Origin: Escherichia coli
GTDB lineage: Bacteria; Pseudomonadota; Gammaproteobacteria; Enterobacterales; Enterobacteriaceae
Length of the DNA: 64,000 nt
Assembly (NCBI GenBank): GCA_025544715.1
Contig: GCA_025544715.1_4109.3
Strand: one strand, 5' to 3'
In this document: piece by piece, positions 5,808-54,205 of the stretch
How the letters are laid out: every line of letters starts with the position of its first letter
How positions within the stretch are numbered: position 1 is the stretch's first letter
Notes under the pieces: model-generated
Seen by the model: the letters and a program-made list of their open reading frames with translations, nothing else
Database searches by the model: none
What the model was told of the DNA's origin: nothing
Translations under genes and position numbers: made by a program

Positions 5808-6734
5808 TTAGAGTGAACTTAACAACAAATCTGCTCGGTTTGTAACTTGACGATACCATAAGGAATTCATGATTTCTTTTTTAAATTTCTTAGGGTTATC
5901 ATTTTTTACGCTTTTCCAAAGCTTATTAAACGTAGCCAATTTATCGACACCCATTGTATAGGACATTTCAAAAAGAATACGTTGTTGTTCTTTGGTCAGA
6001 TTTACTGCTTCTTTTTTCTGCATCAACAATAAAAAGTCATTATATGTTCTTTTCATATCTTGCATTAAAAGTTTATTGGCTTGAGCTTTGGTAATACCGT
6101 TTCTGTACTTAATCGCATCAGATTCTTTTCTACCCAAATAATGCCCATAACCTATTGTATAATTACCTTTCATGTCCTTGTAGGGATGAAATTTAGAATT
6201 GTGGAAAGGAACTCCGACTTTCCCACCAAGTAAACGGCGTTTGTTCTTGGACTGAAATTCAATTGAACCTTCAGCTTCTTTGATGTGATTGACAATTTCT
6301 GGATCATTATAATCAAACAGTACAGTCACATCTGGTAACAATACGTTCTTCAAATCCTCTTTTGTTGGGATAAAGATACCCTGAGAAGTATGAAGAGTAG
6401 CATTTAAATTGATATTTTTCAACAAAATAACATACTCTTCAAGTTGTACATTTTTAGGTTTAAACTTTTTAGCAATAGAATAATAACTATCACCAGGTTG
6501 AACCGTATAATGCTTCTCGCCGCGTGGAACATCCTTTGATATTTCTACCTTTGGTAATTCCTGCTTTTGAATTTGCGTAACTTGTGGTTTTAAATTGTGT
6601 ACCTGACTTTCGTCCGATGATGATACACGATCATTTTGAGAAAAACCATAAAATCCAATCGCAGCGACAAGTACTGTGCAAACTAGAACACCATAAGTAG
6701 TCTTAGTTTTCAGTGCTTTTTTCGCTTGTTTCAA
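5808..6734 (-). CDS. endolysin: signal-anchor + LysM + T4-type lysozyme
   Basis: N-terminal TM, LysM-like HYTVQPGDSYYSIAKKF, C-terminal GNYTIGYGHYL and WYRQVTNRA matching T4 lysozyme; start re-assigned to TTG with GGAGG RBS (track start 6767 is also TTG). Confidence 0.65.
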   Translation of the reverse strand: MKQAKKALKTKTTYGVLVCTVLVAAIGFYGFSQNDRVSSSDESQVHNLKPQVTQIQKQELPKVEISKDVPRGEKHYTVQPGDSYYSIAKKFKPKNVQLEEYVILLKNINLNATLHTSQGIFIPTKEDLKNVLLPDVTVLFDYNDPEIVNHIKEAEGSIEFQSKNKRRLLGGKVGVPFHNSKFHPYKDMKGNYTIGYGHYLGRKESDAIKYRNGITKAQANKLLMQDMKRTYNDFLLLMQKKEAVNLTKEQQRILFEMSYTMGVDKLATFNKLWKSVKNDNPKKFKKEIMNSLWYRQVTNRADLLLSSL

Positions 6735-6902
6735 AACGCCTCCTTTGTTGATTGTTAAGATGGGCAATCACAAAGATGGCAAAGAGGCCATTTGCAAAAG
6801 CCTCATCGGACTTTCTACAGTACAAAAACGTTCTTTTCAAATGTTTAAGTAGTATAGCATATTTTTATTTTATTACAAGACATATTTACTGTAAAAACCA
6901 CA

Positions 6903-12935: not shown

Positions 12936-12960
12936 ATAAAAAAGAGACAATTAAGTCTCT
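12936..12960 (-). terminator. rho-independent terminator ending the non-coding locus
   Basis: agagac/gtctct stem followed by ttttttatt on minus strand. Confidence 0.45.
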
Positions 12961-13000
12961 CTTGACGATGATGGCATCGGATATTATCGAATTGCGAATT

Positions 13001-13181
13001 TCTCAAATTTTGGACGGATCTTTCTTGTACCAAAATTTAGAGAGCGAAAGCGGGTTGCTCGGTTTCTCTCTATCGCAGTCATATGCAACGGTCGCTGGTC
13101 TTTTCATCAACAGCACTCAGTACTAACTCTATTCGATCAAAGTAGTACCTGTTCTCAAATTTTGGACGCAACTTTCTTGTA
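13001..13181. repeat. direct repeat pair (about 29 bp, 152 bp apart) with associated hairpins
   Basis: tctcaaattttggacg-N4-tttcttgta at 13001..13029 and 13153..13181; first copy sits in a 12-bp bulged stem 13002..13042, second overlaps an 8-bp stem 13164..13192. Confidence 0.6.
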
Positions 13182-13457
13182 AAATTGCGTCCGCTATTCT
13201 TAAACTCCCTTAGCAAATCTGGTAAGGTGCGAACCTTATACATCTATCTAGGAACTCTCTGTATGCTTATCGGAGTTCTTTATACAGCCGTGTCGCCGTG
13301 ATTCGTGGTCTTACATCGTGTTTGTTTAAATGCCAGTACTCTAACAGGTTTCTTCTGCTGTTCGCTACAACGGTAAAGCTCATCTATCCTTTACATTTTC
13401 AAGAGAAGTAGGTTCTCAGTGTCCATTTTTCAATGTCCGTTGTCATTTTCTATATAC

Positions 13458-13466
13458 ATTATATCA
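13458..13466 (-). promoter_or_regulatory. extended -10 promoter element (TGaTATAAT)
   Basis: Minus-strand TGATATAAT downstream of the 13487 stop, reading into the non-coding locus. Confidence 0.35.
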
Positions 13467-13486
13467 TTGGAACATATAATGTCCCA

Positions 13487-16061: not shown

Positions 16062-16074
16062 TTTATCACCTTAT

Positions 16075-16104
16075 AAAAAAAGAGAACTCCATATGAAGTT
16101 CTCT
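16075..16104 (-). terminator. rho-independent terminator after 929-aa gene
   Basis: agagaact/agttctct 8-bp stem followed by T-run on minus strand. Confidence 0.5.
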
Positions 16105-16105
16105 A

Positions 16106-16134
16106 ATTATACATAATTACTTTTTCTATGTCAA
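16106..16134 (-). promoter_or_regulatory. consensus sigma70-type promoter (TTGACA-N17-TATAAT)
   Basis: Minus strand reads TTGACA (16134..16129), 17-nt spacer, TATAAT (16111..16106); upstream of 15642..16061 and the spanins. Confidence 0.5.
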
Positions 16135-16135
16135 G

Positions 16136-19578: not shown

Positions 19579-19631
19579 TTGAGTATTTATCGAGTATAAT
19601 GGCATTTTTAGTACCATTATACTCATGTATA

Positions 19632-22865: not shown

Positions 22866-22902
22866 AATTTCCTCCTATTTTTATTCAATTATACACATAA
22901 AA

Positions 22903-22930
22903 GAAAAGCCCGTCAATAGACGAGCTTTAA
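22903..22930 (-). terminator. imperfect hairpin terminator after tail-fibre operon
   Basis: aaagcccgtc/gacgagcttt stem (one mismatch) then T-rich run on minus strand. Confidence 0.35.
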
Positions 22931-22932
22931 AT

Positions 22933-28974: not shown

Positions 28975-29008
28975 TGTATATCCCTTATAAATTAGATATT
29001 AGTTAATG

Positions 29009-29016
29009 TATTTATA
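29009..29016 (-). promoter_or_regulatory. T4-type late promoter TATAAATA
   Basis: Exact TATAAATA on minus strand 35 nt upstream of the tail-fibre ATG at 28974, just after the nrdG terminator. Confidence 0.5.
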
Positions 29017-29024
29017 TACATAAC

Positions 29025-29045
29025 AAAAAAGCACCCAACGGGTGC
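29025..29045 (-). terminator. rho-independent terminator after nrdG
   Basis: gcaccc/gggtgc stem, 3-nt loop, T6 on minus strand. Confidence 0.55.
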
Positions 29046-29050
29046 TTATG

Positions 29051-35523: not shown

Positions 35524-35861
35524 TACATGTAATCCTTGATGTATTTTAGCAGTTTAGATTTCTCTTCGGTACTTAATGATTTCTTGTTCATTAAATGTTT
35601 CATTTCTTGACGTTCAATTTCTTCACATCTTTTAGATTCAGCTTCAATTCGTGTATTATATTCTTCGTCAGTTTCTTCTCTGGTCCAAATTACATTGTAT
35701 CCATGAAAACCGCCATAACCACTGTCTGGTGAAAGACTAATGTGACCGTTATATTCAGCACGATACTTATTAAGAGTGTCAATAAAGGTATCAATGCCAC
35801 ACGGTTCAATTTCAATATAACCAATCACTACAGTAACGTCAATTTTGTTCATAAAGTTCAC
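35523..35861 (-). CDS. hypothetical protein (112 aa)
   Basis: ORF. Confidence 0.45.
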   Translation of the reverse strand: MNFMNKIDVTVVIGYIEIEPCGIDTFIDTLNKYRAEYNGHISLSPDSGYGGFHGYNVIWTREETDEEYNTRIEAESKRCEEIERQEMKHLMNKKSLSTEEKSKLLKYIKDYM

Positions 35862-35879
35862 CTATAAAATTAGGGAGCA

Positions 35880-36437
35880 TTAGCTCCCTTTGTATTGATG
35901 TTTACGTTTAGTACTGTATTTCCAGCCAGTACTGTGTCTTGTTCTGATATCGTCCCAATACGATGGTAATGAACGCATCTTACGTCTTCCACGTATATCA
36001 GGTTCCCCCTCATCCTTCAGTACTGCACAAGCCATACGACGCTCTTGTTGAGTCTTAGGACGCTTGTATCGGGAGTGGTTATGTTTGTACATATACGAAC
36101 GCTTATGTCGCCATTCCGTATCACGAGCTTTGCGTTTATGTTCCCAGTACTCATTATAGAGTATCATGTATTCACCCATAAGTAAATCAGGAGATACAAG
36201 TAATCCTTTTTCAGTACAAAGATAATAACCCACAAACTCTTCTGGGAACATTTCGTAATAGAAACGGTTCTTCCAAAAAGTTTCACGATTCTTTTTGTTG
36301 AATTCTGCTAAATCAAATTTCATCTTACTGTGGAAACGATCTATCCCTTGATGGTCAGCAATGTATTGAAGTAGATCGTCTACAATCTCAACTTTACCAG
36401 AATCGTGATACAACGTAAATGTTTGGTCAAAAAACAT
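35880..36437 (-). CDS. hypothetical basic protein (185 aa)
   Basis: ORF; GGAG RBS. Confidence 0.45.
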   Translation of the reverse strand: MFFDQTFTLYHDSGKVEIVDDLLQYIADHQGIDRFHSKMKFDLAEFNKKNRETFWKNRFYYEMFPEEFVGYYLCTEKGLLVSPDLLMGEYMILYNEYWEHKRKARDTEWRHKRSYMYKHNHSRYKRPKTQQERRMACAVLKDEGEPDIRGRRKMRSLPSYWDDIRTRHSTGWKYSTKRKHQYKGS

Positions 36438-36533
36438 ATGAAATCTCCTTTAAGTTAAAATAACCTAATGGAAAGTCATTCTTCCTTTAATACATGTTCT
36501 CATGATTTGTTCCTTTTGTCAAGATATAGATAT

Positions 36534-36558
36534 AAAAAATCCCTGCCAAAAGACAGGG
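36534..36558 (-). terminator. rho-independent terminator after 62-aa gene
   Basis: tccctg/caggga stem flanked by A/T runs; a second 9-bp inverted repeat (ggagttctt/aagaactcc) lies at 36591..36644. Confidence 0.45.
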
Positions 36559-36663
36559 ACGAAAAACTGAAATAACACATGGAGTTCTTTTTAATTTAAT
36601 AAAAAGTATTATTATTCTTATAAAAGTATTTATTAAGAACTCCACAATATGGCTTCAAATGAA

Positions 36664-36852
36664 TCAAAAACCTTTCTGAGCTACTAGTTCACGGTACTGT
36701 GCACGAGTTAGTACACCTTGTTTGCGTAGAGCTTGTAGACCGGATAGGGTTTCACTCTTACGTTGTTCGTACATACGTTGTTCTTTGGATTGAATAACTT
36801 TCTCTTTCTTAACTTTTGCTACTGGTTCTTGTTTCTTAGGTTGTTTAGCCAT
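36664..36852 (-). CDS. small Lys-rich protein with SHOCT-like C-terminus (62 aa)
   Basis: N-terminal KKQEPVAKVKKEK, C-terminal LSGLQALRKQGVLTRAQYRELVAQ; AGGAG RBS. Confidence 0.45.
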   Translation of the reverse strand: MAKQPKKQEPVAKVKKEKVIQSKEQRMYEQRKSETLSGLQALRKQGVLTRAQYRELVAQKGF

Positions 36853-36883
36853 TTTATATCTCCTTCTGTATTATGATAACAAC

Positions 36884-36917
36884 ATTATATCATGTATGGG
36901 ACATAATGTCCCATACA
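36884..36917 (-). promoter_or_regulatory. extended -10 promoter with abutting 25-bp palindrome (candidate operator)
   Basis: Minus-strand TGATATAAT (36892..36884) immediately downstream of the perfect palindrome tgtatgggac-ataat-gtcccataca (36893..36917). Confidence 0.45.
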
Positions 36918-36920
36918 ATA

Positions 36921-38360
36921 TTACATATTTTCTTCAGCAAATTCAGCCAGTGGTGAACGAACAACACCTTCTAGTTCGATGACACGACAACCTGCCCAGT
37001 CTTTAAACTTCTCAGTTACATAAGTCAAACCACTGTTAACTGGACTAATAAACTTACTGTCAATCTGACTCAAGTTACCCATAATTACTACTTTACAGTT
37101 TAACCCTGCTCGTGTCAAGATGGTTTTTGCTTGTGCAGGTGTAATGTTTTGGAATTCATCAACTACTAGAATAGTGTTGGTGAATGAACGTCCACGTACA
37201 AAGTTTAGTGCTTTAAATTGAATAACATTACGTTTCATAATCTCTTCAATACTACCTTGTGGGTTAGCATCATCTTTATGAAGAAACTCTAACGCATCAA
37301 TCGCGGCTCCACAGAATGGAATCACTTTTTCTGCTTCTGAACCTGGCAAGAAACCAATATCTTCAAACTGTGAGTCTTGAGTTTTAGAGAAGATGATTCG
37401 GTCGTATTTACGTTTTTCCAGTACTAATTCCAATGCAGTAGCAATCGTAATTAGTGTTTTACCAGTACCAGCAGAACCTAGCAGTACTGTTAGATGTACA
37501 TCAGGATCGAGAATACTGTTGATAGCGAGTGCTTGTTGGATATTCTTTGCTTTAATATCCCATACTTTAGCACGTAAAGCCACTGATTGTCCAATGTCTT
37601 GGAATACCAAAATATCTTCTGGTGTTAGTGTTCCATCATCTTCCTCAATTGCTGATTGTCCTTCGTACACAAATAATACGTCAGCATCATCATATAGGTA
37701 ATCACCGATGCATAGATTTTGTGGAAGCAGATGTTCAATCAAGCTTTTAGAAATGTAATGATACAAACGACGACCAACTTGTTCGGATTGAATATTAGTA
37801 TTGGTTAAGTTGCTGTATACTTCCCAAAAATTGATTTCCAGATGGTGTTGACCAATGTGAATCAAATCACTATCACCAATAACAATATCATGGCGATAAT
37901 CTTGTACCTCGACACCATAACTTAGTGCTTTGATACGCATGTTGATATCACGAGTTACCAGTACTGATTCTGTTGCTAAAGCTACCAGAATGATTTTATC
38001 ATCAGGTACAGTACTTTTGAGAAGGGTTTGAACTTTCTCTTCTGTACCTTTAGTACGAATTAGTGCCTCAGCTTCTTCGTTTGTAATAACAAACAATTTG
38101 CTATCAGGATTCATATTGGTATGAACATCAGCAATATTAACACCAGTACTACTAATCTCGTCATGTGATGCATCTGCAATAATTGCTTCAATGTTACGAA
38201 TAGCAACACGTGCATCGCGTGAAACATCTACATTACGACTCTTAATCGAATCTAATTCTTCCAGTACTGTAAATGGTAGAATGATTGCAGCACCATCAAA
38301 AGCAATAGATGCATTAGGGTCAGATAGTAGTACGTTTGTGTCAATTGTATATTTTTTCAT
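36921..38360 (-). CDS. phoH: PhoH-like ATPase with N-terminal PIN domain
   Basis: N-terminal PIN-like IDTNVLL...D, Walker A GSAGTGKT, 479 aa. Confidence 0.8.
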   Translation of the reverse strand: MKKYTIDTNVLLSDPNASIAFDGAAIILPFTVLEELDSIKSRNVDVSRDARVAIRNIEAIIADASHDEISSTGVNIADVHTNMNPDSKLFVITNEEAEALIRTKGTEEKVQTLLKSTVPDDKIILVALATESVLVTRDINMRIKALSYGVEVQDYRHDIVIGDSDLIHIGQHHLEINFWEVYSNLTNTNIQSEQVGRRLYHYISKSLIEHLLPQNLCIGDYLYDDADVLFVYEGQSAIEEDDGTLTPEDILVFQDIGQSVALRAKVWDIKAKNIQQALAINSILDPDVHLTVLLGSAGTGKTLITIATALELVLEKRKYDRIIFSKTQDSQFEDIGFLPGSEAEKVIPFCGAAIDALEFLHKDDANPQGSIEEIMKRNVIQFKALNFVRGRSFTNTILVVDEFQNITPAQAKTILTRAGLNCKVVIMGNLSQIDSKFISPVNSGLTYVTEKFKDWAGCRVIELEGVVRSPLAEFAEENM

Positions 38361-38420
38361 AAAACATCCTTGAGTTATGAGTACATCCTTGTACTCGACT
38401 AATGTTATTGACTCGGATTA

Positions 38421-53207: not shown

Positions 53208-53951
53208 TTACCTTTTGAAACGATTGAATGAGTACTCATCTTTTTCTTTACGTAAGTATCTCATCCCACCACTTTGTGGAGTAGCAAGAGTTAAGTCACC
53301 CGTCAAGAACTGACTATCAATCCAAATGCGATTACCATAAATGAGTGGTTCAGTAACGGCTGTATGTCCACTAAAGACACAATGCACTCCATCTAACTTA
53401 GGTGCATAATAGGTATTATTCATTCTACAATAATCGAATGTTTTCCTATCCCACAAGCACTTATCAATTATATCAGCACTAAGTGATTTTGTCCCATTAA
53501 CAAATCGTTCCCATGTTGTATATTCCAACGGAACTCCAGCATGAACTAACCCAATCTTCAATCCTCGGTGATTGATTTGGATAATCATGGGTAAATCTTT
53601 TAAGTACTGACGAAAGAATTGAATGCCTGTTCCTCCAACTTCATCAAGGAATTTATCACCACCATTACTTATCCAACAATGATACCAATCTCGAAGTGTT
53701 TCCGAATCAACGCACATCATCTCATGATTACCCGCAATCATGTAACGATTTTCTCCGAACAAAAATTCAAAAAGGAGCTTTGAATTTTGTTCTCCACGGT
53801 CGATAATATCACCTACACTGAAAACATAATCATTGTGTGTAATACCAAATTCTTTCACTGTAGCATCCCATAGTTTACCATTACCATGCAAATCACCTAC
53901 AATGTATAAATCTTTATCATCAGGTACGGTTACTTCTAAGAAATGTTTCAT
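53208..53951 (-). CDS. Ser/Thr protein phosphatase (lambda-PPase-like metallophosphatase)
   Basis: GDLHGN, GDIIDRG, GNHEMM motifs; start set to ATG (MKHFLEV) with GGAG RBS (track 53966). Confidence 0.75.
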   Translation of the reverse strand: MKHFLEVTVPDDKDLYIVGDLHGNGKLWDATVKEFGITHNDYVFSVGDIIDRGEQNSKLLFEFLFGENRYMIAGNHEMMCVDSETLRDWYHCWISNGGDKFLDEVGGTGIQFFRQYLKDLPMIIQINHRGLKIGLVHAGVPLEYTTWERFVNGTKSLSADIIDKCLWDRKTFDYCRMNNTYYAPKLDGVHCVFSGHTAVTEPLIYGNRIWIDSQFLTGDLTLATPQSGGMRYLRKEKDEYSFNRFKR

Positions 53952-53953
53952 TA

Positions 53954-54205
53954 TTACTCCAACCATATAATATTAGTGTGTTTAGTAACTTGTGTTCCAG
54001 CAAAAGAACCATCTTTAAGATAAGTATTAATTTTAAAACGCCATTCACCACCACTAATATACATATCAGTAATAATATACTTTCCATACCCTCTAGAGTT
54101 TATTAATCGTACTTCTTGACCAATATATTTTGGCTTCAGATCATTTATAAAATCATCAGCCAAAGACATAAGATATCGCAAATGTGATAAGTCGTGGTTG
54201 AACAT
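53954..54205 (-). CDS. small protein, LIGxxV family member
   Basis: KYIGQEVRLIN motif. Confidence 0.45.
   Translation of the reverse strand: MFNHDLSHLRYLMSLADDFINDLKPKYIGQEVRLINSRGYGKYIITDMYISGGEWRFKINTYLKDGSFAGTQVTKHTNIIWLE

Follow-up and report, generated by a model that had tools for sequence, protein, structure and literature searches.

What does a perfect 25-bp palindrome do in the short gap between two phage genes, when one of its ends adjoins an extended -10 promoter element? The initial annotation of this locus, which lies in a stretch of 64,000 nt of DNA (the window hereafter), took the palindrome for the operator of a dimeric regulator acting on the promoter of a small Lys-rich protein, and argued against a terminator from the lack of a T-run. 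The same letters could be read as the terminator of the upstream gene, as an element acting at the level of DNA, or as two signals lying on top of each other. These readings are weighed here against the sequence of the window and that of related phages.

The phoH gap and its palindrome

Judged by its sequence identity, the window is Asteriusvirus DNA, from a jumbo phage of E. coli similar to 121Q. The 2.6-kb query spanning positions 35800-38400 shares 99.4% identity with Escherichia phage 121Q and 97-98% with about 20 other jumbo phages of E. coli and Salmonella, those fetched being classed as Asteriusvirus. Over the 86 nt around the palindrome identity is 100% in slurp01, G17, Sharanji and others, and this 86-nt element is matched by 33 GenBank records. 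A crude ORF map places 106 of the 110 genes of the window on the - strand, which is also the strand of all the features of the locus. The upstream gene (36921..38360) encodes a PIN-PhoH protein of 479 aa (Pfam PhoH, 7e-44; PIN_4, 8e-20), called PhoH-like in the annotations of 121Q and related phages; its stop codon in the ORF list, TAA, occupies 36921-36923. The next ORF (36664..36852, with its ATG at 36852) encodes a Lys-rich protein of 62 aa that PHROGs assigns to phrog_24119, a family of function not known. The small-ORF unit is closed by a canonical Rho-independent terminator, a hairpin followed by TTTTTT (36539..36560), which was found by a terminator scan and is annotated in G17 and UE-S1.

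The gap between phoH and the 62-aa ORF measures 68 nt and reads, on the coding strand, TAA-TAT-TGTATGGGAC-ATTAT-GTCCCATACA-TGATATAAT-GTTGTTATCATAATACAG-AAGGAG-ATATAAA-ATG, from the stop codon of the first gene to the start codon of the second. The palindrome (36893..36917) lies inside it and is directly followed by the extended -10 element TGATATAAT (36884..36892). A further 31 nt lead from there to the ATG, and they include the Shine-Dalgarno sequence AAGGAG (36860..36865), 7 nt 5' of the start codon; the annotation of UE-S1 has a ribosome-binding site in this position. Otherwise the gap carries no annotation in any record examined.

The ORF itself is as the initial annotation described it, small and rich in lysine; the SHOCT-like C-terminus reported with it does not hold up at the Pfam threshold, the match having E = 0.013 and 15.6 bits for a cut-off of 27. 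The protein has only 12 clusters of close homologues, all of them Asteriusvirus-like, and no relative in the PDB. Its AlphaFold model consists of a disordered basic N-terminus and then two helices, with no recognisable DNA-binding fold. Searches of Pfam and PHROGs found no DNA-binding family for this protein or for the downstream 185-aa ORF, and the upstream 100-aa ORF, scanned against PHROGs only, matches a membrane-protein family. Taken together, the searches with the 62-aa protein and its model neither help nor hurt the operator idea decisively.

The palindrome reads TGTATGGGACATAATGTCCCATACA on the + strand (36893-36917) and has perfect 12 + 1 + 12 symmetry, so that the initial description of a 25-bp palindrome adjoining an extended -10 is borne out by the letters at 36893-36917 and 36884-36892. 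When up to three mismatches are allowed, no second copy is found in the 64-kb window and no match at all in 100 dinucleotide shuffles, and the longest inverted repeat detected in these 64 kb has the palindrome as its seed. As phoH sense RNA it gives an 11-bp stem with a 3-nt loop, beginning 4 nt past the phoH TAA, with a predicted folding energy of -17.1 kcal/mol (z = -3.2 to -3.4 against shuffles). The stem is not followed by a U-rich tract, because the -10 box comes directly after it; UGAUAUAAU forms the tail, and the hairpin is not among the terminators called by the scan. Efficient intrinsic termination is therefore not expected of this stem, and termination would be partial at most. The earlier observation that a T-run is absent was thus correct, and the step from there to the absence of a terminator is outweighed by comparative evidence for a counterpart of a phoH terminator, which is presented below.

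Other roles for the palindrome were considered and rejected. RNase III needs a stem longer than 11-12 bp, and the stem here, of 11-12 bp, is too short for such a site. A hairpin promoter of the N4 type was likewise set aside, and so was an antisense promoter built on the other arm, because neither TGnTATAAT nor any good -10 stands at a suitable distance on the + strand.

A probable promoter of the small ORF

The initial annotation had placed the palindrome at the -35 position of a promoter for the small ORF. This placement is supported, and the left arm of the palindrome itself carries the -35-like sequence, TGGGACA at 36907..36913, within which GGGACA (36912-36907) lies 17 nt from TATAAT. The assignment of this element is based on the conservation of its GACA, on motif enrichment and on the match to a predicted promoter class of phage CBB, and that of the extended -10 on its sequence and on the invariance of TGnTATAAT.

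GGGACA matches the sigma-70 consensus at only four of six positions, and sigma-70-like matches are no commoner between 30000 and 45000 than in shuffles (77 vs 77.1). Both observations speak for a reading in which the gap holds a hairpin or terminator only, the match to TGATATAAT being inactive and the small ORF being expressed by read-through from phoH. We regard this as unlikely in view of the behaviour of the promoter sequence among relatives. An alignment of ten Asteriusvirus genomes, which span 99% down to 80% identity over the region, shows TGnTATAAT and the GACA of the -35 to be invariant while the flanks, including the 5' UTR, diverge. An extended -10 also precedes the small ORF in JNE01, EJP2 and metagenomic relatives (RaK2 has TATAAT without the TG), and a full TTGACA stands at the right spacing in the sister lineages Turkey5, A4, RaK2 and L116. 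The promoter of JNE01, moreover, has remained with the small ORF despite the insertion of a gene upstream. Finally, the pattern TGRRACA-N13/14-TGnTATAAT is strongly enriched: it occurs five times in the window for an expectation of about 0.01, always on the gene strand, three times with N13 (0.01 expected) and twice with N14 (0.00 expected). The census of this promoter class covered the 64-kb window and the first 50 kb of 121Q, and in the latter the class is found 5' of replication and structural genes.

A related motif has been described before. 'Promoter 1', a divergent RpoD-like sequence of the form TGAAACG/TGGAACG-N13-TGnTATAAT, was predicted with MEME in CBB and noted in GAP32 (Buttimer et al. 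2017, PMC5259590, Table S6). The likeness to this class, which is a predicted one, consists in a TGRRAC(A/G) 7-mer followed by a perfect extended -10 and enriched in a RaK2-like phage genome. The Asteriusvirus form differs in having TGGGACA, TGAGACA or TGGAACA as its 7-mer, and the element at this locus is TGGGACA-N14-TGATATAAT, with N14 in place of the class-typical N13. The literature searched gave no transcript mapping for any Asteriusvirus. On the evidence of conservation and of membership in an enriched motif class, which supports the promoter half of the initial annotation, the promoter is probably real and of a phage-specific class.

Hairpins after phoH in related phages

The gaps between phoH and the small ORF were gathered from GenBank relatives and from metagenomic contigs encoding homologues of the 62-aa protein, and each was folded. 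Every relative has a stable hairpin 4-29 nt past the phoH stop, and hairpins of all types fold beyond shuffles (z -3.2 to -5.4); what differs is their sequence and their register with respect to the promoter. Type A, to which the window belongs, comprises 33 GenBank records and metagenomic contigs L122-L124 and L127, and has GGGACA in the left arm, the right arm filling the promoter spacer and the arms standing 5, 4 or 3 nt apart. Type B (Turkey5, A4 and contigs L119-121) has a consensus TTGACA and then a hairpin that straddles the -10, with an arm distance of 6-7 nt; its arms read GCGTCCAT...ATGGACGC in one version and GTGTTCAT...ATGAACAC in the other, Turkey5 and A4 differing by two compensatory pair changes. 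Type C (contigs L116 and L117) has the hairpin GGTACTG(A/G)ACA...TGTTCAGTACT with TTGAC(A/T) in its loop and an arm distance of about 11 nt; the right arm adjoins TGATATAAT and the left arm resembles the stem of the RaK2 terminator, CGGTACTGA. The arm sequences of types A, B and C are unrelated to one another.

In the remaining relatives (type D: RaK2, EJP2, JNE01 and L125) hairpin and promoter are separate. In RaK2 a hairpin with flanking A- and T-runs is separated by about 30 nt from TTGACA-17-TATAAT, behind which lies a longer small-ORF homologue, and in EJP2 about 250 nt lie between the hairpin and the promoter. JNE01 (L013:145-1540) and L125 carry a gene of 426 aa inserted exactly between TAATAAT and TGATATAAT, with its breakpoints at the hairpin edges; phoH has a new hairpin behind it, and the promoter that remains at the small ORF, TAGACA-16-TATAAT, has none. 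The inserted gene, which encodes three CapR homology domains and has a GTG start, lacks an evident promoter and may itself be mobile. As it stands after the phoH hairpin without a visible promoter, the hairpins there would leak and could not be complete terminators.

Phages that lack the small ORF extend the series. Yen9-04 and CBB have a G-rich hairpin and a T-run after phoH, and BF has a G-rich hairpin without a T-run. The next ORF in 7t3 is an unrelated one, and there the hairpin and T-run after phoH are followed by TGATATAAT. Canonical terminators are present at the orthologous post-stop position in Yen9-04, CBB, 7t3 and RaK2. A scan of IMG/VR with the 3' end of phoH returned 92 loci, of which only 121Q was relevant, and added no diversity. 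As far as the compared sequences tell, the hairpin keeps to the phoH 3' end and the promoter to the small ORF, which would make the palindrome of the window the product of the two being compacted onto each other.

Changes within the stem can be followed among close relatives. The type-A relatives keep the stem, and the changes seen are one G.U pair and one compensatory replacement of G-C by A-U. Five type-A genomes share the G.U pair, and the G-C to A-U replacement is that of L127; another G.U pair is found in L117. Pairing within the sense-strand RNA would tolerate changes of this kind, and the loop differs in both sequence and length (ATTAT, ATAAT, GTACT, ATTC, ATTA). The covariation within type A, which amounts to one compensatory and one G.U pair, is not significant (121 of 500 shuffles equal it), and because of this the case for the hairpin rests mainly on its turnover between lineages.

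The same comparisons bear on the operator. According to that reading a dimeric regulator, perhaps the 62-aa protein, would sit on the palindrome and, by covering the -35 and spacer, repress the promoter. A perfect dyad that covers both the -35 and the spacer of a conserved promoter, with no T-run after it, is in its favour, as are the palindromes that overlap the core promoter in types B and C too, and symmetric changes in both arms would also be expected of a co-evolving operator. However, the site is a single one in 64 kb even when three mismatches are allowed, and the distance between its arms is not fixed within type A (5, 4 or 3 nt) or between this type and types B (6-7 nt) and C (about 11 nt), the arms of which are unrelated and lie at other promoter registers. 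The promoter of JNE01 and L125 has no palindrome, asymmetric changes of the G.U type persist in several genomes, and plain terminators occupy the orthologous sites in other genera. Nor is there an obvious regulator: no HTH or RHH family match was found in the small protein or in the one neighbouring ORF scanned, and the model of the small protein is a disordered tail with two helices. With a unique site, unfixed spacing, hairpin turnover, separation from the promoter and terminators elsewhere, the operator for a dimeric regulator is unsupported, and we consider it improbable. The initial annotation had preferred the operator to a terminator, naming a palindrome that works only as a phoH terminator as the alternative that would speak against it; the comparative series favours a counterpart of the phoH terminator.

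An element acting at the level of DNA, either a hot-spot of recombination and gene shuffling or an extruded cruciform, with no role in RNA, would account for the insertion in JNE01 and L125, where the breakpoints fall exactly at the hairpin edges. It could also draw on a twin promoter elsewhere in the window (13458-13486), which differs from its 121Q counterpart by a patch of eight changes that makes it cassette-like, and on the proposal that PeSLs (promoter-early stem-loops), the composite elements of T4-type phages discussed below, are recombination sites (PMC2839356). The insertion is a single example, however, and the CapR-bearing insert may itself be mobile; above all, recombination leaves unexplained why a stable hairpin follows phoH in every lineage. 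This makes a purely DNA-level role very unlikely.

Our preferred explanation, which we hold to be likely, is that the gap contains two overlapping signals, the promoter of the small ORF and a hairpin that is the counterpart of the phoH terminator and acts in RNA. What the sequences show directly is the anatomy of the gap, the pattern of conservation, the enrichment of the motif and the separation of the two parts in relatives; promoter activity, the start site, termination or attenuation and the RNA polymerase holoenzyme that would read the promoter are inferred. TGGGACA, 14 nt and TGATATAAT would form the promoter that drives the 62-aa ORF, with a predicted start near 36877, and transcripts reading out of phoH would form the 11-bp hairpin. 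Compaction would have brought the two signals together in such a way that the left arm now provides the -35-like element, the right arm fills the spacer and the -10 replaces the U-run of a terminator. A hairpin of this origin, with its U-run replaced by the -10, most likely acts at the RNA level, where it could attenuate read-through from phoH, protect or stabilise the 3' end of the phoH mRNA, or both. RNA polymerase would then restart at the promoter for the small ORF, and the unit would end at the terminator at 36539-36560. As a consequence, the gap cannot be cleanly split, because phoH and the small ORF would share one stretch of 25 bp.

The overlap might be more than a by-product of compaction. 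At least three hairpin registers have been re-invented over one promoter, which raises the thought of selection for physical coupling, an idea to which we give only a small chance. If the overlap were functional, several mechanisms could be imagined. First, a polymerase paused at or released from the hairpin would be handed directly to the promoter. Second, the hairpin would insulate the promoter from occlusion by read-through. Third, a phage factor recognising TGGGACA could bind the inverted pair as a dimer, and this would make the palindrome a regulatory switch instead of two passively fused signals.

Other sites in the window and known composite elements

The window contains a single look-alike of the cassette, TGGGACATTATATGTTCCAATGATATAAT (13458-13486, - strand), a class promoter of the form TGGGACA-N13-TGATATAAT. 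Its spacer differs from that of 121Q (L112:1038-1066) at 8 of about 20 positions and its flanks at few. The version of the spacer in the window, ATGGGACATTAT...ATGATATAATGT, resembles the cassette at 36884-36917, and the difference may be the result of gene conversion between promoter cassettes. This promoter heads a stretch of about 490 nt (~12960-13452, - strand) that has no credible ORFs and a terminator at ~12965-12990. The stretch is nearly identical in 121Q, with few differences, and is conserved as DNA across genera (69% in GAP32, 71% in Erwinia phage Kaldavass); the GAP32 counterpart sits in an unannotated gap of 900 nt. A class promoter of its own precedes the stretch in each of the three aligned relatives, A4, GAP32 and Kaldavass, and among the 90 pairs that RNAalifold predicts from four sequences, 27 show compensatory changes. 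Scans of the whole window with Rfam at gathering level and for tRNA and tmRNA gave no match, the 490-nt stretch included. The unit is a candidate for a new structured non-coding RNA of RaK2-like jumbo phages, a proposal built on its conservation and predicted pairing, and it is probably more interesting than the palindrome, which matters little on its own.

Terminators and promoters also meet at other places of the - strand. A canonical terminator at 22866-22932, AAAGCTCGTC-TATT-GACGGGCTTT followed by a T-run, carries the -35 sequence TTGACG in its loop and 3' arm, with TATAAT 17 nt downstream. The order is reversed at 16062-16135, where a consensus TTGACA-17-TATAAT is followed after a few nt by a terminator-like hairpin and T7, ahead of the next start codon, a layout that looks like an attenuator or an inverted cassette. 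Since both sites combine terminator and promoter, overlapping signals appear to be a habit of this genome.

Further sites were noted in passing. A perfect class promoter, TGGGACA-N14-TGATATAAT, lies at 53467-53496 (- strand) inside an ORF of 252 aa (53208-53966), and either it is an internal promoter or the ORF has been over-called. At 19590-19631 (- strand) a 13-bp hairpin without a T-run follows a stop codon and has TATAAT in its left arm; it is followed by ATATAAATT, a sequence similar to a T4-type late promoter, and by a start codon that lies 5' of the one in the crude map. A canonical terminator at 28975-29050 (- strand) is directly followed by TATAAATA, which is the T4 late-promoter consensus, and this putative late promoter agrees with the predicted late class of CBB and GAP32. 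Lastly, the crude ORF map shows 729 nt (6174-6902) without an ATG-initiated ORF of at least 50 aa.

How does the phoH gap compare with systems already known? With repressor operators such as lambdoid OR/OL and LexA boxes it shares dyad symmetry over the -35 and spacer, and it differs from them in having no repeated sites, no conserved half-site or spacing and no identifiable regulator. With intrinsic terminators it shares a stable, G/C-containing hairpin a few nt past the upstream stop codon, at the position held by terminators in Yen9-04, CBB, 7t3 and RaK2; it differs in that the stem lacks a U-tract.

The closest parallel is found in the PeSLs, composite promoter/terminator motifs of the T4-type phages RB49/phi1, PST and nt-1 (Arbiol et al. 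2010, PMC2839356; Comeau et al. 2014, PMC4122927). Their elements come in the order stop codon, A/T-rich stretch, -35, stem-loop, -10, Shine-Dalgarno sequence and ATG (PMC2839356). Most of the stem-loops occupy the interval from -35 to -10 or lie over the -10; they may overlap either box, and they have stems of G-runs and C-runs with G-T pairs (PMC2839356). In lacZ assays PeSLs gave both promoter and terminator activity (PMC2839356; PMC4122927). The locus described here resembles them in several respects. Boxes of the sigma-70 type, GGGACA-17-TATAAT with a TG, lie between a stop codon and the Shine-Dalgarno sequence and ATG within a gap of 68 nt, and 19 of the 23 nt 5' of GGGACA (GAAGAAAATATGTAATATTGTAT) are A or T. 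The stem-loop spans the -35 and spacer, relatives show registers over the -10 and around the -35, and the stem is likewise made of a G-run and a C-run with G-T pairs. The several positional subclasses of PeSLs in related genomes are matched by types A, B and C. The gene insertions between close relatives at PeSLs may have a parallel in the one case of JNE01 and L125, which is suggestive, although the insert may be mobile by itself. There are differences as well: the host is a RaK2-like jumbo phage, not of the T4 type as those papers define it; the -35 is TGGGACA, the form specific to the class, and not the sigma-70 consensus; and the stem-loop is unique in 64 kb, with one weak look-alike (13458-13486), and does not belong to a repeated, conserved family. 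Because host, -35 and the non-repeated stem-loop differ, we do not file the element as a member of the PeSL family.

Since a compact terminator/promoter layout is already known from T4-type phages, the finding is an ordinary one: a composite terminator/promoter element that was previously unannotated, in a phage group that was already known from sequencing. Its practical value would lie in the annotation and engineering of these phages, which are candidates for therapy. The series of relatives can also be regarded as a natural experiment on the merging of terminator and promoter during genome compaction, ordered from the two being separate (RaK2, EJP2, JNE01), through a hairpin around the -35 and a hairpin supplying the -35, to a hairpin over the -10. 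To the composite cassettes known from large T4-related phages the finding adds an element of at least 33 deposited Asteriusvirus genomes, and it suggests that the composite terminator/promoter design extends to RaK2-like jumbo phages.
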